Assembly (NCBI GenBank): GCA_037916645.1
Contig: JBAIXJ010000103.1
Location: forward strand, 1-31,343
Direction: 5' to 3'
DNA: 31,343 nt
Origin: Opitutales bacterium
Lineage (GTDB): Bacteria; Verrucomicrobiota; Verrucomicrobiia; Opitutales; Opitutaceae
Shown: positions 1-10,616 of the stretch, in pieces
Layout of the letters: every line of letters begins with the position of its first letter
How positions within the stretch are numbered: position 1 is the stretch's first letter
Notes under the pieces: model-generated
Seen by the model: only the letters and a program-made list of their open reading frames with translations
Told to the model about the DNA's origin: nothing
Databases searched by the model: none
Translations under genes and position numbers: made by a program

Positions 1-392
1 TCGGCAACGAGTTTCTTTTGATCGGCCTCGAGTTTGATTTGATCCGCTTCAATCTGGCGGCGCGCCTCGGCGATCTTCAACTGGTTGGCCTTCATTTTCA
101 ACTGCTCGGCGTTGAGCTTCGCCTGGATCGCCTCGAGCTTCTGCTGGTCGGTCGAAAGCTTGAGCTGGGCCGCCTGCACCCGCGCGATCTCCGCCTGGAG
201 AATCTTGCCCTGGTCGGCGGTGATCTTGTGCTGGTCGACCAGCAGCTTGATTTGCTCCGCCGAGAGGAGATGAACGGTTTCGGCCGCCTGGAGCAACGGG
301 CTCATGCTGACGCCCAGGGAGCAGCCGAGGGTGAGGAGCGCCGCGGTCAGCGGACCGGAGCGGAAGCCGGAGATTTTGGAGGAAGTCTGCAT
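1..392 (-). CDS. Secreted heptad-repeat coiled-coil protein (3' end runs off the window)
   Basis: Hand translation from ATG at 392, open to the window edge (not in ORF track): MQTSSKISGFRSGPLTAALLTLGCSLGVSMSPLLQAAETVHLLSAEQIKLLVDQHKITADQGKILQAEIARVQAAQLKLSTDQQKLEAIQAKLNAEQLKMKANQLKIAEARRQIEADQIKLEADQKKLVA. Signal-peptide-like N-terminus, then repeated [LIVM]-x-A-[DE]-Q-x-K heptads; GC-rich third positions; canonical promoter just upstream. Confidence 0.85.
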   Translation of the reverse strand, partial: MQTSSKISGFRSGPLTAALLTLGCSLGVSMSPLLQAAETVHLLSAEQIKLLVDQHKITADQGKILQAEIARVQAAQLKLSTDQQKLEAIQAKLNAEQLKMKANQLKIAEARRQIEADQIKLEADQKKLVA

Positions 393-415
393 CGGGGCAT
401 CTGGGTAGAGAATAA

Positions 416-444
416 AATCTATTCACCCAAGAACCGGCTGTCAA
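416..444 (-). promoter_or_regulatory. Sigma70-type promoter for the heptad-repeat gene
   Basis: Minus strand TTGACA (444-439), 17-nt spacer, TAGATT (421-416), ending 23 nt upstream of ATG 392. Confidence 0.7.
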
Positions 445-506
445 CGGGGCGGTCGGTTGCGCCGGCGCCTCGCCTGGCTTCTGAATCGGTGACCTGCCGC
501 CGTCGG

Positions 507-2900
507 TCAGCCAAGCGTGGCCACGATTTTCGCGCCGTCCTTGAGCTGATTCGCCGGGACGAAGCTGCCGGGCACCAGCCGGCCGTTGACGGTGAGGGAG
601 GCGATGCCGCGGTTCACGCCGTTCGGGTTTTTCACTTCGATGAGCACCGTCTTGCCGCGGAACCGCCGGCGCATGGTGAATCCCGACCAGCCTTTCGGGA
701 TGCAGGGATCGATCCGCAGGCCGTCGACCTCGGGCCGCACGCCGAGGATCCATTGCGTGGCGGTGTAGTGCGCCCAGGAGGCGGTGCCGGACAGCCACGG
801 CACGCGCGACCGGCCGAATTTCTTCGAGGTCGGGGCGTGGGTGCTTTGGCAGTGCACGTAGGGCTCAATCTCGCGGATCTCCGCCCGGTCGTTCTGCGCG
901 GCGGGCATGAACGCCCGGTAGTACGCGTACGCCTGGTCGCCGTTGCCGCGGGCGATCTCGGCCAGCACGACCCAGCTCTGGGTGTGACTGAAGATGCCGC
1001 CGTTCTCCTTGTTGCCCGGATTGAACAGCACCGCGCGCATCACCCGCACCGGCGTCTTCGCGAACGGCGGGTCGCACAGCGCGACGCCGAACTCGGAGGC
1101 GAGGTGCTGCTTCACCGCCACGAGCGCCTTCGCCGTCTGTTCGGGAGTGGCCGCGCCGGAGAGCACGGCCCAGCTTTGGGTGTTCACGTAGACGCGGCCC
1201 TCCCTGGACTTCCGGGAGCCGAACACCGTACCGTCCTCCGCAATCGCCCAGATGAACCAGCCGCCGTCCCAGCAGGTCCGGGCAATCGTCCCGTCGAGCT
1301 TGACGAGTTCGGCCCGCGCCCACTGCCGCTCCTTGGGGTGGCCGAGGCGGGCCGCGATGTCGGCGTAGGTCTGGAGCCCGAAACGAAGCTGAAACGCGAC
1401 GAACACGGACTCGCCGCGGTAACCGAGCCGCAGGCAGTCGTTCCAATCGGCGTGCAGGCCGCACGGCAGGCCGTGGCGGCCCGTCCGCGCGAGGTTGAAT
1501 TCCAGCGCGCGCCGCAGGTGGCCCAGGACGGTGGCCCGGCCCCGGTCCGCGTAGGGCACGACCTCCCGGTAGAAGGCGACGTCGCCCGTCTCGGCAACGT
1601 AGGCCGGGATGGTGTTGAAGAACCACAGGCAGTCGTCGCTGCGGTAGCGGTCCGGCGGCGTGGGCTTCATCCGGCCCGGGCGGTGCGACCACGGGCGGAT
1701 TTCGGGCTGGGCGCCGCCGGTCGCGTCCTGCCCGGAGAGCATCAGGATCAGGCGCGCGCGAACCTCGCGCGGGAGCATGCCGGCGACCCCGAGCATGTCC
1801 TGGACCGTGTCGCGGAAGCCGAAGCCATCGCGCTGGTCGCCAGTGTAGACAAGCGAACAGGAGCGCGACCACTCGAACGTCATGAGGGCGTTGTAGGCGC
1901 CCCAGACGTTCGTCATGTGGTCGAAGTCGGCGTCCGGCGTCTTCACCCGGAGCGTGTCGACCAGGCCGTGCCAGTGACGCTTGAGCCGGGCGAGTTCGCG
2001 CTCGCAGGCGGTGACCGTGCCGAACGCCGCCCGCGTCCGCCGTGCCACCGGGGCGCGGCCGATGCCGAGCAGCACGAGCACGTCGGCCGACGCGCCGGGC
2101 GCGAGCTCCAGGTCGCTCTGGATCGCCCCGCAGCCGTTGTCCGAAAAATGCCCGCTGTTGCCGCAGGCGCCGCGCTCCACCGCCTCCGGCCGGTCAAAGC
2201 TGCGGTAGGCGCCGAGGAACTTTTCGCGCTCGCAGTCGTAGCCGGCGATCGTGCCGCCAAGCTGCGTCATCCACCACCAGCGCGACTGGTCCCAATTGGC
2301 GAAGTTCGCCGGATCTTCGGGCAGCCGGCGGCAGGAGGACGCGAGGATGAAGCCGTCGCGCCAGACGGCGTCGGAGATGTACTGCGCGTACTGGAGGTTC
2401 AGCAGGTCCTGCTGGATGTTCCACTCGGTGGTGAACTCGCAGAACGAAAACACGCTCAGGCGCCGCGGCGCGGCGCCGGTGTTGGTGACCTTCAGGCGCC
2501 AGTATTCGAAGTCGCGGTCGAGCGGCACGAAGTACGTCGCTTCGCTCCGGATCCCGCGCCACTCGCTCGTGATGACGGCGTAGCCGAGGCCGAAGCGCGT
2601 CGTGGTCTGGAACTCCGGCAACGGTTTTCCCACCGGCTGCCAGGCGGCCGACCAGAAGTCGCCGCTGTCGCGGTCGCGCAGGTAGAACTGGCGGCCGGGC
2701 AGGTCCATCGGCACGGCGTTGTACCGGTGGCGAAGAAAACGGCCCGACGCCGGCGAGCGCGTGAAGCTGTAGCCGCCGGCGTGATGGGTGATGATCGCGC
2801 CGTAGCGGCGGGAGCCGAGGTAGTTCGACCACGCCCGGGGGGTGTCGGGGCGGGTGATGACGTATTCGCGGGCTGCGTCGTCGAAATGGCCGTAGTTCAT
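507..2900 (-). CDS. GH94 glycoside phosphorylase (cellobiose/cellodextrin/chitobiose phosphorylase family), 797 aa
   Basis: Start taken at MNYGHFDDAAREYVITRPDTPRAWSNYLG, a typical GH94 N-terminus; GFGFRDTVQD, catalytic GLHADWNDCL, NKENGGIFSH and C-terminal WLSGTASW motifs. The 45 extra N-terminal codons in the ORF track look non-coding. Confidence 0.93.
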   Translation of the reverse strand: MNYGHFDDAAREYVITRPDTPRAWSNYLGSRRYGAIITHHAGGYSFTRSPASGRFLRHRYNAVPMDLPGRQFYLRDRDSGDFWSAAWQPVGKPLPEFQTTTRFGLGYAVITSEWRGIRSEATYFVPLDRDFEYWRLKVTNTGAAPRRLSVFSFCEFTTEWNIQQDLLNLQYAQYISDAVWRDGFILASSCRRLPEDPANFANWDQSRWWWMTQLGGTIAGYDCEREKFLGAYRSFDRPEAVERGACGNSGHFSDNGCGAIQSDLELAPGASADVLVLLGIGRAPVARRTRAAFGTVTACERELARLKRHWHGLVDTLRVKTPDADFDHMTNVWGAYNALMTFEWSRSCSLVYTGDQRDGFGFRDTVQDMLGVAGMLPREVRARLILMLSGQDATGGAQPEIRPWSHRPGRMKPTPPDRYRSDDCLWFFNTIPAYVAETGDVAFYREVVPYADRGRATVLGHLRRALEFNLARTGRHGLPCGLHADWNDCLRLGYRGESVFVAFQLRFGLQTYADIAARLGHPKERQWARAELVKLDGTIARTCWDGGWFIWAIAEDGTVFGSRKSREGRVYVNTQSWAVLSGAATPEQTAKALVAVKQHLASEFGVALCDPPFAKTPVRVMRAVLFNPGNKENGGIFSHTQSWVVLAEIARGNGDQAYAYYRAFMPAAQNDRAEIREIEPYVHCQSTHAPTSKKFGRSRVPWLSGTASWAHYTATQWILGVRPEVDGLRIDPCIPKGWSGFTMRRRFRGKTVLIEVKNPNGVNRGIASLTVNGRLVPGSFVPANQLKDGAKIVATLG

Positions 2901-3029
2901 GCGACGGAGCGGAGTCGAACAGGCGCGCAGGGGAGGGCGCAACCGAAACGGCTTAAGCCCATTTGCGCAAGACGTGGCTTCGGCCCGCGGGAACGGGAGT
3001 TCGATCGTCGGGCGGCGCCGCCGGCAGCA

Positions 3030-3058
3030 TTGCATCTCCCGGCGCGCTCACCTAAGCC
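3030..3058 (+). promoter_or_regulatory. Possible promoter for hisC
   Basis: TTGCAT (3030-3035), 17-nt spacer, TAAGCC (3053-3058; imperfect -10), 19 nt before ATG 3078. Confidence 0.35.
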
Positions 3059-3077
3059 TCTGCCGCAAACACCCGCC

Positions 3078-4169
3078 ATGGACGCCGCACGCTTCGCCCA
3101 GCCGCAAATTCTGAATCAGCCGGTCTACCTGCCCGGACGGCCGATCGCCGATGTGGCCCGGGAATTCGGCCTCGACCCGGCGCAGATCGACAAACTGGCC
3201 TCGAACGAGAATCCGCTCGGCCCGTCGCCGAAGGCCGTCGCCGCGGCCGCCGCCGCGTTGCCCGCCCTGAACCTTTATCCCGACGGCGGCTGCTGGGAGC
3301 TCACCGCCAGGCTCGCCGCGCACCTCGGCGTCAACCGCGAACAGCTCGTGTTCGGGAACGGCTCCAACGAGGTGCTGGAGCTTGCGGCCCACGTCTTTCT
3401 GGGCCCGGGCACGGAGGCAGTCATGGGCGTGTACGGATTCGTGGTCTACAAGCTCGCCACCCTCCTCATGGGCGCCCGGGCCGTCGAAGTGCCGATGCCC
3501 GGCTTCCGGCACGACTTGGCGGCGATGCGCGCCGCCGTTACGCCGCGGACCCGGATCGTGTATCTGGCCTGCCCGAACAATCCCACCGGCACCGCCGACA
3601 CCGAGGCCGAGCTGATCGCCTTCGCCCGCAGCCTGCCGGAGGACGTCCTGTTCGTGCTCGACCAGGCTTACGCCGAATTCCAGGAGCGCGCGCCGGACCT
3701 GCGTCCGCTGATCTCCGAGGGCCGGCCGGTGCTGTGCGCGCGGACGTTTTCGAAGATCTACGGCCTGGCCGGCCTGCGGGTCGGGTACGGCTACACGCGG
3801 CCGGACATCGCCGCGCTGCTGCATCGGGCCCGGGCGCCGTTCAACATCAGCTCGGTGGCGCAGGTGGCGGCGGTGGCGGCGCTCGACGACACGGAATTTG
3901 TGCGCCGCAGCCGCGAGAACAATGCCGCCGGCCTGAAACAACTGGCCGCCGGCTTCCGCGCGCTTGGGCTCGAATTCGTGCCCTCTGAGGCCAACTTCAT
4001 CCTCGTGAAGGTGCCCGACGGCGGGGCGGTGTTCCAGTTTCTCCAGCGCCGGGGCACGATCGTCCGGCCGTTCGGCAATCTCCCTGAATACGTGCGCATC
4101 ACGGTCGGCACGCCCGGGCAGAACGAGCGCTGCCTGGCCGGGTTGCGCGCGTATCTCGCGTCCCGCTGA
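3078..4169 (+). CDS. hisC: Histidinol-phosphate aminotransferase, 363 aa
   Basis: C-terminal part of the 1383-aa track ORF, from MDAARFAQPQILNQPVYLPGRPI; KLASNENPLGPSP, YPD, GNGSNE, CPNNPTG, DQAYAEF, RTFSKIYGLAGLRVGY (PLP lysine), SEANF, RITVGTP motifs. Confidence 0.93.
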   Translation: MDAARFAQPQILNQPVYLPGRPIADVAREFGLDPAQIDKLASNENPLGPSPKAVAAAAAALPALNLYPDGGCWELTARLAAHLGVNREQLVFGNGSNEVLELAAHVFLGPGTEAVMGVYGFVVYKLATLLMGARAVEVPMPGFRHDLAAMRAAVTPRTRIVYLACPNNPTGTADTEAELIAFARSLPEDVLFVLDQAYAEFQERAPDLRPLISEGRPVLCARTFSKIYGLAGLRVGYGYTRPDIAALLHRARAPFNISSVAQVAAVAALDDTEFVRRSRENNAAGLKQLAAGFRALGLEFVPSEANFILVKVPDGGAVFQFLQRRGTIVRPFGNLPEYVRITVGTPGQNERCLAGLRAYLASR

Positions 4170-4232: not shown

Positions 4233-4799
4233 TCACCCGGCGGCGAACCACGCGCACGCGACGCCGGCGAGGAGGCCGAAGAGGTGCCCCTCCCACGAGG
4301 TGCCATCGCGCGCCGGCTTCAGGCCGGCGAGCATGCCGCCGTAGAAGAGGAGCACGCCGCCGGCGACAAGCAGGTCGGGCGGCGTCCGCGTGAACCAGGC
4401 GGTGGCAAGGAGGAAGCCAAAAAACCCGAAGATCACCCCGCTCATGCCGACGTGGGCCGCGTTGCGCCCGAAAAGCCAAAGCAACGCGCCCTGCGCCAAG
4501 GCAATCGCCACGGCGATCTCGATGAACTGAATCCCATGGCGCCGCAGCACGAGGGTGCCGAGGGCGATGAAGGGAGGCAGGTTCGCCGCGAGGTGCGCCG
4601 CGTTGAGGTGGATGAACGGCGAGGTGACGATTCCCACCAGACCCGCCGCATGACGCGGCACCACCGCCAGGCACGCCGCCGATTTGCCCAGGACCAGCGC
4701 GAGGATTGTCCCCGCGACCATCGCCGCCGCCGGCCACGCCAGGTAGCACTCGGGGGGCTCGAAATAGAGCCGATGCAGGAACTCGAACGCGCGGTCCAT
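4233..4799 (-). CDS. Rhomboid-family intramembrane serine protease, 188 aa
   Basis: Multiple TM segments; FIHLNAAHLAAN, catalytic GMSG (HVGMSGVIFG) and catalytic His in SWEGHLFG. Confidence 0.88.
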   Translation of the reverse strand: MDRAFEFLHRLYFEPPECYLAWPAAAMVAGTILALVLGKSAACLAVVPRHAAGLVGIVTSPFIHLNAAHLAANLPPFIALGTLVLRRHGIQFIEIAVAIALAQGALLWLFGRNAAHVGMSGVIFGFFGFLLATAWFTRTPPDLLVAGGVLLFYGGMLAGLKPARDGTSWEGHLFGLLAGVACAWFAAG

Positions 4800-4804
4800 G
4801 TGAC

Positions 4805-4846
4805 CAGAGGACAGAGGTCAGCAGTCGGAAGTCGGCACACAGAGGA
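4805..4846. repeat. Degenerate 7-bp tandem repeat, 6 in-phase units
   Basis: CAGAGGA CAGAGGT CAGCAGT CGGAAGT CGGCACA CAGAGGA in exact 7-nt phase, filling most of the gap between two genes. Confidence 0.6.
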
Positions 4847-4865
4847 CGCCGGACATTTTCGGGAG

Positions 4866-5951
4866 TCAGGGCGCCGCGACGAATGGCTCGATCGGACGGA
4901 ACCCCGGCCGCCCGCAGGCAGCGTCGCGGGCCGGAACCCCGGAGAACAGATACACCGCATAGCCGCCGAAGCCGCCACCGCAGTATTTGCAGGCGCGCAT
5001 GCCGGCGATGTCAGCCGGGAGCGGCGCCATGCCCTCCGCGGTTTGCGCCGCGTAGGACTGCCGCACCGCATCCGCGAGCAGTTCGACCTCCTGCCGCCAG
5101 ACGGCATCGCGGGCGGTCTGGCCGGCGCGGGCGATGGCGGCATAATCGCGTGGCCGCTCGGCGAGGTCCGGCGTGGAATGCGACCGGCCGGTCCAGAGCA
5201 GCGCCAGGCGGCCGCGCAGCATGGCGCCGTCGCTCTTCACTTCGAGCTCGGGCCGGGAGCCGCTGCGCCAGACGCAAAGGCCGGTTTCGCCGATCACCGC
5301 CGGATCCTGCCAGCCGACGCCGAGGTTGAGCTCGGAGGCGACGCTGTCGCGTCCGTTGAGCAGGGCCCAGGCGCCGCTCCCGCCGAGGCCGGCATTGCGC
5401 TCATAGGGCCAGGTGCGCAGCGAGACCGTGGGGGAGATCGCGCAATTGACGATGTAGCCGCCCGGTTTCGCAAAACGGGGCACGTCGAGCCAGCCGCCGG
5501 CGAAGTCCACCCGCAGCGGCGCCTCCTGCGGCGCCCGGATCCAGCGGACGATCTCGGAGGTCGAGAGGGGCGGGAACTGGGGCGCCGTCTTGGGCAGGAC
5601 GACGTAGCGGGCGCCGATGCGCGAGCACAGGGCCTGCTTCTGGGGCCCGTACCGGTCGTCCTCGGTCACGGCCAGGATGTCGGGCCGCAGCCGGAGGAAC
5701 TCGTCCTGGAAATCGAGCCCCTCCTCCAGGCCGGTGCCGATGACCACCTCGTCGACGGCGGCGAGCGACGCCAGCAGGGCGCGCTTGTGTTCATCGGGCA
5801 GCGAGCTCCGCCGCTGCCGGTAGCGCCACAGCACCTCGGCCGAGGCAAACGACACGGTGAGGTGGTCGCCCAGGGCCCGCGCCTCGCGGAAAAACTGCAC
5901 GTGGCCGGCGTGCAGGAGGTCGTAGAAGCCGGAGACAAAGACCTTGATCAT
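4866..5951 (-). CDS. Fusion of a HIGH-type cytidylyl/adenylyltransferase domain and a compact GHMP-kinase domain, 361 aa
   Basis: N-terminal VFVSGFYDLLHAGHVQF (HxGH), RPDILAVTED and STSEI resemble RfaE-II/TagD-like nucleotidyltransferases; C-terminal PLRVDFAGGWLD..GGYIVNCAIS, AGLGGSGA, GVGWQDP and KYCGGGFGGY resemble HddA/fucokinase-type GHMP motifs. Confidence 0.8.
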   Translation of the reverse strand: MIKVFVSGFYDLLHAGHVQFFREARALGDHLTVSFASAEVLWRYRQRRSSLPDEHKRALLASLAAVDEVVIGTGLEEGLDFQDEFLRLRPDILAVTEDDRYGPQKQALCSRIGARYVVLPKTAPQFPPLSTSEIVRWIRAPQEAPLRVDFAGGWLDVPRFAKPGGYIVNCAISPTVSLRTWPYERNAGLGGSGAWALLNGRDSVASELNLGVGWQDPAVIGETGLCVWRSGSRPELEVKSDGAMLRGRLALLWTGRSHSTPDLAERPRDYAAIARAGQTARDAVWRQEVELLADAVRQSYAAQTAEGMAPLPADIAGMRACKYCGGGFGGYAVYLFSGVPARDAACGRPGFRPIEPFVAAP

Positions 5952-6055
5952 GGCTGGGGATGAGCACGGCGCACCGCCGCCGCGCCGTCAACACGATGCG
6001 GCCGGCCGCCCAGTACGCCTTTGCCAAAGCGGCGGAATTCTGGTCCGTTAGCCGC

Positions 6056-6501: not shown

Positions 6502-7092
6502 ATGAAGGCGCTCCCCAATCTGCTCAGCGCGCTGCGGCTCCTTCTCGCCCCCACGATGGTCGGAGCGGCCGCGGCCACCGGATCGCGACGGTGGTTCCTG
6601 ATCCTGTTCGGCCTGTCCCTGTTGACGGACGCGCTCGACGGGTTCCTCGCCCGGCGTCTGCACGCGGAATCGGACCTGGGGCGGCGGCTGGACAGCTGGG
6701 CCGACTACGTGATGACCGCGGCGGCGGTGGCGGCGATCTGGCTGCTCTGGCCCGAGGTCGTGCGGCGGGAATGGCCGTGGTTTCTGACGACGGTGGTCGG
6801 GTGCTTTGCGATCGTCGTGTACGGGCTGATCCGCTGGCGGCGGGTGCTGGGCTATCACACCTGGCTGGCCAAAGGGATGGCGGTCGTGCTGCCGATCGGG
6901 GTCGTCGTACTGCTGGCCGGATGGACTCCGCTGGCCTTCCACATTGCCGTGGTGCTGCAGGTCTTGTGCGGCATCGAGGAGATGATGATCGCCTTCCTGC
7001 TGCCCGGCTTTTCGGGGCCTGTGCCCAGCGTCTGGCATGCGGCCCGGTTGCGGCGACCGAAGACGCCGCCCCCAATGTCGACCGGTTGTTAG
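6502..7092 (+). CDS. CDP-alcohol phosphatidyltransferase family protein, 196 aa (alternative GTG start at 6490 overlapping the upstream stop)
   Basis: LPNLLSALR N-terminus and the signature DALDGFLARRLHAESDLGRRLDSWAD; hydrophobic TM segments. Confidence 0.88.
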   Translation: MKALPNLLSALRLLLAPTMVGAAAATGSRRWFLILFGLSLLTDALDGFLARRLHAESDLGRRLDSWADYVMTAAAVAAIWLLWPEVVRREWPWFLTTVVGCFAIVVYGLIRWRRVLGYHTWLAKGMAVVLPIGVVVLLAGWTPLAFHIAVVLQVLCGIEEMMIAFLLPGFSGPVPSVWHAARLRRPKTPPPMSTGC

Positions 7093-8279: not shown

Positions 8280-9245
8280 TCAGGCCCGCGGCGCGGGCCG
8301 CTCCGCGATCAGGGCGCTCGCCAGCACGGCGGTGGCGAGGACCCCGCCGATGACGCCGAGCGAGACCGTCGTGGAGATTTCAATCCAGGGCGCGATCAGC
8401 ATCTTGACGCCGATGAATTCCAGAATGATGGCGAGGCCAAGCTTGAGGTAACGGAATAGCTTCATGACGCCACTCAGCGCGAAATAGAGGGAGCGCAGGC
8501 CGAGGATGGCGAAGATGTTCGAAGTCAGGGCCACGAAGCCGTCCTTGGTGATCGCCAGCACCGCGGGGAGGGAATCGAGGGCGAAGACCAGGTCGGTGGT
8601 CTCGACGACGAGCAGCACGACGAACAGCGTCGTCGCAGCCCGCCGCCCGCGGTCGCGCGTGAAGAAGTGCCCATCGTTCGACCCGGGCACGACGGGGAAA
8701 AACCGGCGGAACACCCGGACGGCGAGATTGTGGTCGGGATTGACGTCGACCTCGGACCGGCGCGGCAGGGCCATCTTGATCCCGGTGTACACGAGAAACG
8801 CGCCGAACAGATAGAGCACCCAGTGAAACCGCTGGATCACGCTCACGCCGGCGAGGATGAAAGCCGTCCGCATCGCCACGGCGCCGAGGATGCCCCAGAA
8901 GAGCACCCGGTGCTGCCAGCGGGACGCGACCTTGAAGTAGGCGAAAATGACGATGAAGATGAACACGTTGTCGACGCTCATGCAGAGCTCGACGAGGTAG
9001 GAGGCGAGGAACTGGTTGCCGAGTTCCGCACCCCGCCAGCGGTAAACCAAGCCGTTGAACAGCAGCGCGAGCGTGATCCAGACCCCGCACCACGCCAGCG
9101 CCTCCTTCATCCTCACTTCGTGCGCCTGCCGCTGAAAGATGCCGAGGTCGAGCGCCAGCATGACCGCGATGAACCCAAAGAAGCCGAGCCACGCCCACCA
9201 CGGAAGCGAGGGAAGTGTGTCGATGGCGGCGATCAGCGGTTGCAC
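8280..9245 (-). CDS. TerC/Alx family integral membrane protein, about 321 aa (GTG start; alternative ATG 9269)
   Basis: MLALDLG, YLVELCMSVDNVFIF, QHRVLFWGILGAVAMR, VETTDLVFALDSLPAVLAIT, SNIFAILGLRSLYF motifs. ATG 9269 falls inside a predicted promoter, favouring GTG 9245. Confidence 0.9.
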   Translation of the reverse strand: MQPLIAAIDTLPSLPWWAWLGFFGFIAVMLALDLGIFQRQAHEVRMKEALAWCGVWITLALLFNGLVYRWRGAELGNQFLASYLVELCMSVDNVFIFIVIFAYFKVASRWQHRVLFWGILGAVAMRTAFILAGVSVIQRFHWVLYLFGAFLVYTGIKMALPRRSEVDVNPDHNLAVRVFRRFFPVVPGSNDGHFFTRDRGRRAATTLFVVLLVVETTDLVFALDSLPAVLAITKDGFVALTSNIFAILGLRSLYFALSGVMKLFRYLKLGLAIILEFIGVKMLIAPWIEISTTVSLGVIGGVLATAVLASALIAERPAPRA

Positions 9246-9259
9246 CAGAGAGGGCAGGC

Positions 9260-9287
9260 ATTGTCCCATCCCGCCGGGGCAGCGCAA
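9260..9287 (-). promoter_or_regulatory. Possible promoter for the TerC gene
   Basis: TTGCGC (9287-9282), N16 ending in TGG (extended -10), GACAAT (9265-9260). Confidence 0.45.
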
Positions 9288-9377
9288 GCGGAAGCGTTCG
9301 GCGGGCCCGCGGCGGCCGGGTCCGGGCATATTCTTTGACTTTCCCGCGCGGGCCGCTTTTACCGAGACCTCCTTGCG

Positions 9378-10616
9378 ATGATGACGCGCGCCCGCTCCCT
9401 GCTGTTCTCCTTCGGCCTGCTGCTGACCGCGATGGTCGCCGCCGGGGCGGCGGCCCGGCCCGCGGCGCCCGAGGCATTGTCGGACAGCCTGCTGAACCGG
9501 ACGGTCGACTGGGTGCTCGCGCTCTTCAAGGCCGAGCCCGGGAGCAACTCCGTCGGCCACTATGCCGCCGCCGGCCTCCTGCTGGTGACGGCCGTCCTGC
9601 TGCGCCGGGCCATCACCCATGTCATCTTCGCCTGGCTGAAACGGCTGGCGGCGCGGACGACATCGACCCTCGACGACAAGCTGCTGCCCGCGCTGGAGGC
9701 GCCGGTGGCGTGGCTGGTGTTTGTCTTTCTGGCTTTCGCCGGTCTGGAGGTGCTGGTGCTCCCCCCGACGGCCGAGGCGTGGATCGGCCACGCCTTCGAC
9801 GTCGTCTGGGTGGCGGTCCTCTTCTGGGGCCTGCTCCGGGCGCTCAACGCCGTCGTCGACCACCTGGTCGAACGGGACACGCAGCGGGGTCTCGGCCTGA
9901 GCCACTTTGTGCCGCTGATCAAGAAGACGCTCGCCGTGGTGTTCATCGTCATGGCGGCGCTGACCGTGGCCCAGCGTCTGGGCGTCCAGGTGGGGGCGTT
10001 CATCGCCGGCCTCGGGATCGGCGGCCTCGCCTTCGCCCTCGCCGCCCAGGAGACGATCGCGAATTTCTTCGGCTCGCTGGTGGTGGTGATGGACCGGCCG
10101 TTCCGGGTGGGTGAATTCGTGCGCATCGCCGGCAGCGAGGGCACGGTGGAGGACATCGGCCTGCGCTCGACCAAGCTCCGCACCGCCGCGCGCACCCTGG
10201 TCGTCATTCCCAACAAGCTGGTGGCGGCCGAGGCCATCACCAACTTCTCGCGCATGCCGCAGCGCCGCGTCGACCAGACGATCGGCCTGACCTACGCCAC
10301 CGCGCCGGAACAGATGGAGGCCATCCTCGAGGACATCCGCGGCATCCTGCGCGGCGATCCCGAGGTGCATCCGCAGACGATCGCGGCGTATTTCGCGGGC
10401 TACGGCGAGTCATCGCTCAACATCGAGATCATCTACTACGCCGCTGATCCCGACTGGGAGCGCCACATGAAGCTGCGGGAGCGCGTCAACCTCCGGATCA
10501 TGCGGGCCGTGGCGGCGCGCGGACTCTCGTTCGCGTTCCCGACCCAGACGCTGCACGTGGAGGACGACGTCGCGCGGAAGCTGGCCGGCGTGAAGCCGGC
10601 CGCGCTGGGGTCGTAA
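9378..10616 (+). CDS. MscS-family mechanosensitive channel (YnaI-like), 412 aa
   Basis: AGLGIGGLAFALAAQETIANFFGS, DRPFRVGEFVRI, GTVEDIGLRSTKLR, IPNKLV, NFSR, SFAFPTQTLHV motifs. Confidence 0.92.
   Translation: MMTRARSLLFSFGLLLTAMVAAGAAARPAAPEALSDSLLNRTVDWVLALFKAEPGSNSVGHYAAAGLLLVTAVLLRRAITHVIFAWLKRLAARTTSTLDDKLLPALEAPVAWLVFVFLAFAGLEVLVLPPTAEAWIGHAFDVVWVAVLFWGLLRALNAVVDHLVERDTQRGLGLSHFVPLIKKTLAVVFIVMAALTVAQRLGVQVGAFIAGLGIGGLAFALAAQETIANFFGSLVVVMDRPFRVGEFVRIAGSEGTVEDIGLRSTKLRTAARTLVVIPNKLVAAEAITNFSRMPQRRVDQTIGLTYATAPEQMEAILEDIRGILRGDPEVHPQTIAAYFAGYGESSLNIEIIYYAADPDWERHMKLRERVNLRIMRAVAARGLSFAFPTQTLHVEDDVARKLAGVKPAALGS

Follow-up and report, generated by a model that had tools for sequence, protein, structure and literature searches.

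Which reactions are catalysed by a protein that joins a nucleotidyltransferase of the HIGH type to a strongly shortened kinase of the GHMP superfamily, and on which substrate it would act, are the questions raised by a gene of an Opitutaceae bacterium. The gene is located on the minus strand at positions 4866-5951 of a contig stretch of 31,343 nucleotides, which is here referred to as the window. It starts with an ATG, at a position that is identical in its homologues, and encodes a protein of 361 residues. An earlier note on this DNA had described the pairing as neither HldE nor FKP and had proposed a two-step activation of an unknown sugar or alcohol, leading via its phosphate to an NDP derivative. 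Our analysis suggests that the protein is probably a compact enzyme of L-fucose salvage, which would perform the function of FKP with other components. Both of its catalytic activities, as well as the identity of the sugar and of the nucleotide, are predictions from sequence comparison and from a structural model. The features on which the argument relies are the following:

4866..5951, minus strand: entire coding sequence of the predicted bifunctional nucleotidyltransferase/mini-GHMP kinase of the Amuc_1591 type (361 residues plus stop; from homologues and the model)
5538..5951, minus strand: N-terminal HIGH-type (TagD/HldC/ECT-like) nucleotidyltransferase domain, residues 1-138 (PF01467, 30 bits; TagD 1coz, Z 18.3)
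5901..5912, minus strand: HxGH motif, H14-A-G-H17 (H14 and H17 present in all fused viral copies)
5550..5567, minus strand: LSTSEI, residues 129-134, second nucleotide-binding motif of the ISTT type (not of the (F/L)xxGRSTT form of promiscuous heptose transferases)
4875..5528, minus strand: C-terminal truncated GHMP kinase domain, residues 142-359 (structure matches with Z 20-22; profile matches to FKP, WcbL and HddA)
5478..5513, minus strand: GHMP motif I, RVDFAGGWLDVP, residues 147-158 (R147/W154/D156 equivalent to FKP R592/W599/D601)
5394..5432, minus strand: 13-residue connector PTVSLRTWPYERN, residues 174-186 (replaces the FKP segment of about 92 residues with D644, M645, P666 and I669)
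5370..5393, minus strand: GHMP motif II or P-loop, AGLGGSGA, residues 187-194 (S192 equivalent to FKP S719)
5295..5336, minus strand: E207 to G213-W-Q-D216 (Q215/D216 equivalent to FKP Q761/D762, the latter the proposed general base; D216 invariant; GGGWQDQ in the alignment)
4962..4988, minus strand: GHMP motif III, KYCGGGFGG, residues 322-330 (G327 equivalent to G326 of Amuc_1591, at which the mutation G326E confers resistance)

Domain architecture and the shortened kinase

The layout of the protein, in which a domain with the HxGH motif is followed by a short GHMP domain within about 360 residues, is that of the Amuc_1591-type fusion. The combination of a HIGH-type transferase with a miniaturised GHMP kinase, distinct from both HldE and FKP, is borne out by its motifs, by an AlphaFold2 model obtained with 44 homologues (mean pLDDT 94.6, pTM 0.82) and by superposition. 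Residues 1-138 superimpose on TagD (1coz; Z 18.3, rmsd 1.9 Å, 126/126 residues; Foldseek TMt 0.87-0.88) and also on 3GLV, Fom1 and HldC. Residues 142-359 superimpose on mevalonate kinase, WcbL, galactokinase and FKP (Z 20-22, rmsd 2.1-3.0 Å, 204-217 residues), with the matched GHMP kinase chains being 302-390 residues long, and they display the fold of this superfamily together with its motifs I, II and III.

In family models, these relationships are reflected to different degrees. The N-terminal domain belongs to the cytidylyltransferase-like superfamily (TIGR00125, 30.9 bits against a cut-off of 27.7), with its HxGH and ISTT-type motifs located, and Pfam recognizes only residues 7-75 of the protein as CTP_transf_like (PF01467, 30 bits against a gathering cut-off of 21). 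The Pfam models GHMP_kinases_N and GHMP_kinases_C find no match in the window protein, PF08544 is touched by two of 37 family members (E 0.12), and a Pfam scan of the C-domain family returned no significant family. The more specific models of NCBIfam remain below their cut-offs, as found for TagD (TIGR01518, 35.6 against 165.4 bits), for the archaeal PPAT model, which gives a sub-threshold match at the N-terminus, and for FKP (NF009948, 16.7 against 721 bits, confined to residues 143-172).

The best NCBIfam match of the N-domain is rfaE_dom_II (TIGR02199) at 47.8 bits. Together with the naming of phrog_7878 as HldE and the presence of WcbL and HddA among the fold matches, it would be in line with a hybrid heptose enzyme that replaces HldE by combining an HddA-like heptose-7-phosphate kinase with an HldC-like heptose-1-phosphate adenylyltransferase. 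We regard this role as very improbable, since the score is far below the cut-off of 181.5 bits, the protein lacks the STTR5 motif, a phosphatase has to intervene in the heptose route and the sugar pocket described below matches FKP residue for residue. The score for the second HldE/HldC model (NF008454) is 38.8 bits against a cut-off of 521, and the (F/L)xxGRSTT form from which LSTSEI departs has been defined for promiscuous heptose transferases (PMC11573728). HldE and HldC likewise represent a HIGH-type transferase for a beta-sugar-1-phosphate fused to a kinase, but the kinase of HldE is of the PfkB type and N-terminal, whereas that of the window protein is of the GHMP type and C-terminal. 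The filling of an HldE gap was considered separately and rejected, as the same genome carries individual HldC-like (144 bits) and HldA-like (325 bits) genes.

Within the C-domain, about 80 residues are absent between the second strand and the P-loop. The interval from NCAIS to AGLGGSGA, previously estimated at about 12 residues, comprises exactly 13, compared to about 92 in FKP, where the strand ends at residue 619 and the glycine loop extends from 712 to 720 (PMC11982464). The survey of homologues for this deletion, which the earlier note had proposed, has revealed a short connector of 12-20 residues as a trait of every family member examined. In an ATP-bound model of FKP, five residues hold the base, namely D644, M645, P666, I669 and L722 (PMC11982464, section 9), the first four of which fall between the NLAIE strand and the glycine loop and have no counterpart in the window protein, which does not contain the full N-terminal lobe of GHMP kinases with its ATP-base segment. 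The loss of four of the five modelled base residues has not been reported before, and their location in the deleted segment implies that kinase activity or the choice of the donor may be atypical. All elements of the site for the triphosphate and the metal are conserved (G188, G190, S192, E207 and motif III). The suspected GHMP kinase with an ATP site thus holds with respect to its fold and the site of the triphosphate but not for the segment that contains most of the modelled contacts to the base.

The absence of this segment, and with it of the base pocket, could be interpreted in terms of a sugar-binding module without kinase activity, in which case the N-domain would nucleotidylate a sugar phosphate provided by another enzyme, and a study from 2026 refers to the C-terminus of the related Amuc_1591 as the substrate-binding part (PMC13313206). 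We consider such a division of labour improbable. G188, G190, S192, E207, D216, R147, K322 and the glycines of motif III are nearly invariant in bacteria and phages at 41-58% identity, a pattern that is expected for catalysis and not for binding alone. Moreover, the mutation G326E in motif III gives rise to resistance (PMC13313206), a separate fucokinase is not apparent, and searches of carriers for FKP gave no match.

The sugar pocket and the relative in Akkermansia

The equivalence of the kinase to the fucokinase part of FKP concerns the residues that engage the sugar. In crystal structures and mutants of FKP, D762 is the proposed general base and R592 stabilises the leaving group; the ring of fucose and its hydroxyls at C3 and C4 are kept in place by W599, D601 and Q761 (PMC11982464). 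A profile alignment assigns these positions to R147 (R592), W154 (W599), D156 (D601), Q215 (Q761) and D216 (D762) of the window protein, and five of the six catalytic and fucose-binding residues are identical, the exception being T602, which is replaced by V157. Variation at the five pocket positions is absent or minimal among 44 homologues and 36 distinct viral copies. FKP from Bacteroides fragilis (PDB 5YYS, 9IIP, 9IIT) shares with the predicted enzyme the proposed two-step salvage and a GHMP fucokinase with the same catalytic and sugar-binding residues. In contrast to the 361 residues of the window protein, FKP is 949 residues long, its N-terminal transferase is a pyrophosphorylase of the GT-A type that includes a beta-helix, instead of a HIGH-type Rossmann domain with TagD fold, and its kinase is of full size (about 356 residues) and contains the base-binding segment that is missing here.

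A relative with 60% identity over 358 residues, and thus over its full length, is encoded at L181:9122-10210 on the minus strand of an Akkermansia genome of 2,664,102 bp, directly upstream of murJ and an aminotransferase gene. On the basis of features including synteny, we take this genome to be that of A. muciniphila BAA-835 and the gene to be Amuc_1591. The encoded protein contains V176 and G326 at the published positions, with V176 and G327 as equivalents in the window protein, which together with the degree of identity defines the latter as an orthologue in a family known from genetics and modelling. Amuc_1591 was proposed in June 2026 (Gut Microbes) as a 'previously uncharacterized fucose-nucleotidyltransferase' that supplies the fucose of the LPS core, with an adenylyl/cytidylyltransferase domain at its N-terminus, followed by a C-terminal domain similar to the fucokinase of FKP (9IIP), and as part of the murJ transcription unit (PMC13313206). 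This assignment is based on suppressor genetics and modelling: 12 of 12 D-arabinose-resistant suppressors were mutated in Amuc_1591 (V176G, G326E or a frameshift), so that its loss of function confers resistance, and the toxicity of D-arabinose, a phenotype reported for A. muciniphila only, was relieved by L-fucose or mucin (PMC13313206).

Both proteins agree in their two-domain architecture, their length (361 compared to 363 residues) and their motifs, whereas their genes differ in location, with Amuc_1591 adjoining murJ and the gene of the window, from an Opitutaceae MAG, being flanked by a rhomboid gene on one side and by a divergent YfcE gene on the other. With the description of Amuc_1591 in 2026, the fusion architecture is no longer novel. 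What had been regarded as an unusual pairing has therefore found a described family, whose description consists of genetics and modelling; a search for published work on a fusion of GHMP kinase and cytidylyltransferase as such returned nothing relevant. Some genomes of an Akkermansia-like genus carry a second copy (L177:7380-10820, L183:7349-11050), which is located between genes for a glycosyltransferase of the WecG/TagA family and an acyltransferase (Acyl_transf_3).

The same two-step chemistry could serve a look-alike of fucose, such as D-arabinose, L-galactose or another 6-deoxy or methylated hexose, with fucose merely competing for the site. D-arabinose is evidently accepted by Amuc_1591 (PMC13313206), the exchange of FKP T602 for V157 is found in nearly all members, the phage copies described below are located beside varied glycosyltransferases, methyltransferases and epimerases, and the arabinosylation of phage DNA employs kinase and transferase fusions of other folds (PMC13326640). 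We still judge a different native sugar to be unlikely, although it is the alternative that we take most seriously, because L-fucose rescues the growth of Akkermansia (PMC13313206), because these bacteria, as the same study argues, live in habitats where D-arabinose is rare (PMC13313206), and in light of the mutual exclusion with FKP and the linkage to gmd and fcl-like genes, both of which are features of the genomes.

Distribution, gene neighbourhood and the proposed pathway

With more than 2500 homologues, the family does not represent a chance match. The best 120 of these are proteins of about 361 residues from Opitutaceae/Verrucomicrobia, which are named only 'cytidyltransferase-like'. A search with the C-domain among 1.8 billion representatives yielded 242 clusters at 50% identity, which include fused (about 360 residues) and stand-alone (about 215-245 residues) forms, and no canonical GHMP kinase is found among the 150 matches listed. 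The fusion is present in 58 of 151 Opitutaceae genomes with a patchy distribution by genus, which suggests an accessory gene. In a sample of 401 genomes of Verrucomicrobiota, it is found in 13 of 35 Opitutaceae, 19 of 26 members of a sister family (f3) and 28 of 31 members of one genus with genomes of 1.7-3.3 Mb, which includes the Akkermansia genome described above, and it is almost absent from the other groups. Copies with 72-73% identity to the C-domain of the window protein are contained in MAGs labelled Myxococcales (L047, PMCK01000116) and delta proteobacterium (L059, CAWEUH010000036); as they nest inside the Opitutaceae clade, mis-binned contigs or a recent transfer are suggested.

In the genomes searched, the fusion and FKP do not occur together. 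Full-length FKP is encoded in 18 of the 151 Opitutaceae genomes, with an overlap with the 58 carriers of the fusion of 0 compared to about 6.9 expected (kinship ignored). Among 52 genera, the 26 with the fusion and the 10 with FKP are disjoint (P about 3e-4, kinship ignored), and in the sample of 401 genomes from the phylum, 64 with the fusion and 54 with FKP show an overlap of 0 compared to 8.6 expected (kinship ignored). About half of the genomes carry neither of the two.

In the window, the gene order is rhomboid, fusion and then, in divergent orientation, YfcE and a CDP-alcohol phosphatidyltransferase. Of 84 related loci, 7-8 have retained this order, all at 80% identity or above, and it is absent in Horticoccus, other Opitutaceae, family f3 and Akkermansia. 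The divergently adjoining genes for the YfcE phosphoesterase and the CDP-OH_P_transf protein, and the resemblance of the N-domain to the cytidylyltransferases ECT, CCT and TagD, could evoke a Kennedy-type pathway, in which the fusion would provide a CDP-alcohol for transfer to a lipid by the nearby phosphatidyltransferase (6505-7092), an assignment that we find barely credible for a protein with a kinase pocket of the sugar type. An operon with YfcE and the CDP-alcohol phosphatidyltransferase was considered as well and rejected, since the synteny is found only in relatives at 80% identity or above and thus within the genus.

Three further observations concern the surroundings of the gene. The CDP-alcohol phosphatidyltransferase (6505-7092, plus strand, 195 residues) scores below every NCBIfam equivalog cut-off (ClsA, PgsA, PssA, PIP synthase). 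Two long frames on the plus strand of 1388 (3-4169) and 559 residues (4284-5963), which are antisense to or overlap with real genes (GH94 and the fusion gene), are artefacts of the 70% G+C content and not genes. An open reading frame of 696 residues (8280-10370, minus strand) contains a TerC domain only at residues 457-659, and its N-terminal part of 450 residues, which is without family match, may be due to an incorrect start or to domain fusion.

Two other loci place the fusion near genes of fucose metabolism. At L026:3192-7552, the fusion, gmd, an fcl-like epimerase gene and an ABC-2 (Wzm-like) transporter gene follow in order, and at L059:968-8681, gmd and an fcl-like gene are also present within 6 kb. 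These gmd and fcl-like genes constitute the de novo route to GDP-fucose. In the genome from which the window originates, at least six full GH29 fucosidases are encoded, which would be a source of free fucose. A search for gmd in this genome, which is 85% complete, gave no match; the gene is present in a genome of the same genus and in the Akkermansia genome.

It is the preservation of the pocket residues of FKP, the mutual exclusion with this enzyme, the clustering with gmd and fcl-like genes and the GH29 fucosidases that lead us to favour L-fucose salvage. Where the earlier note had left the substrate as an unknown sugar or alcohol, the pocket, the orthology to Amuc_1591, the exclusion of FKP and the gmd-fcl neighbourhood point to L-fucose or a very close analogue, and neither heptoses nor polyols are indicated. 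The proposed sequence of a phosphate and an NDP derivative remains the mechanism that is best supported by sequence and model. In the first step, the mini-GHMP domain would phosphorylate the anomeric hydroxyl of free L-fucose with D216 as general base, while the gamma-phosphate would be held by R147, the GLGGS loop and a metal ion. In the second, the HxGH domain would condense fucose-1-phosphate and an NTP to NDP-L-fucose, in parallel to the action of HldC on heptose-1-phosphate, and the product would feed the fucosyltransferases of the envelope. GDP-fucose is the likeliest product, since gmd and the fcl-like gene supply the same pool. No HIGH-type transferase is known to make GDP-fucose; the N-domain would be the first HIGH-type enzyme to act on fucose-1-phosphate, with HldC and its heptose-1-phosphate as the nearest precedent. 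The presence of gmd in the genome of the same genus and in Akkermansia suggests that the enzyme would operate in salvage beside a de novo route, as does FKP in Bacteroides.

Phage copies and implications for the family

Besides bacteria, the family extends to uncultured phages, on whose contigs (L097-L142 from IMG/VR; L092 and L095) we have identified at least 36 distinct fused or split copies with a G+C content ranging from 27% to 69%. The 46 loci from IMG/VR, at 40-56% identity, are mostly fused copies. All catalytic and sugar-pocket residues are kept in the phage proteins. This phage branch of the fusion family has not been described before. A tblastn search of GenBank phage records with the C-domain and with a phage-type copy gave no matches, and viral copies were found in IMG/VR contigs only. 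In a quick tree, the bacterial branches are shallow and the viral ones deep, and the tree does not settle the direction of transfer between phages and bacteria.

The copies reside in modules for replication and nucleotide metabolism or beside glycosyltransferases, with glycosyltransferase family 2 being most recurrent among 150 neighbouring proteins. On T4-like contigs, the gene follows those for the clamp-loader, RegA and primase and precedes a fusion of HAD and NTP_transferase domains; in a lineage of low G+C content, it has the gene for a MazZ-like diphosphohydrolase on one side and, on the other, that for a glycosyltransferase and then DnaB; and on a contig of 115 kb, it is contained in a large cluster for sugar modification. 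A stand-alone mini-GHMP gene follows a separate CTP_transf_like gene in L095, a type of contig with terminase and portal genes, and another is found in L092 together with GT2, GT4, APS-kinase and PAPS-reductase genes. The fusion of a HAD_2 hydrolase and an NTP_transferase (phrog_3980; 458 residues at L097:8668-10041, plus strand; also in L113, L115 and L121) is encoded by the gene directly following that of the enzyme in L097, L115 and L121 and lies two genes farther along in L113; it may constitute a second step of sugar-nucleotide synthesis. A comparable supply of sugar donors by phages is provided by AfhE, RB69 gp52:53 and DLP3 gp82, which are fusions of arabinose kinase and UDP-arabinose pyrophosphorylase (PMC13326640); their GT-A-type transferase and APH/protein-kinase-like kinase domains are, however, without sequence relationship to the family of the window protein.

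A more far-reaching proposal is one that we consider speculative and put forward with low expectation. In this case, the mini-kinase, deprived of the canonical base pocket, would take its phosphate donor in a new way: it might accept any NTP, or its pocket might be completed by a dimer partner or by the transferase to which it is fused. The nucleotide of fucose or arabinose formed by the HIGH-type domain would be new to this fold and perhaps not GDP-linked, and the many phage copies, located in replication modules next to glycosyltransferases, would serve to glycosylate phage DNA or the surface glycans of virion or host.

The salvage of fucose into surface glycans is central to the use of host mucin by gut Bacteroides and, apparently, by Akkermansia. 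Opitutales and Akkermansia degrade fucose-rich polymers, and in these organisms the fusion family seems to provide a second answer, unrelated to FKP, to the problem that FKP solves. If the proposed activity holds true, the protein would define the smallest working GHMP kinase and extend the substrates of HIGH-type transferases by a new class. It would then also offer an alternative of 361 residues to the 949 residues of FKP for the chemoenzymatic synthesis of fucose nucleotides, and it would explain the toxicity of D-arabinose in Akkermansia. The occurrence of the family in phages points to an as yet unexplored use of this sugar donor by viruses.
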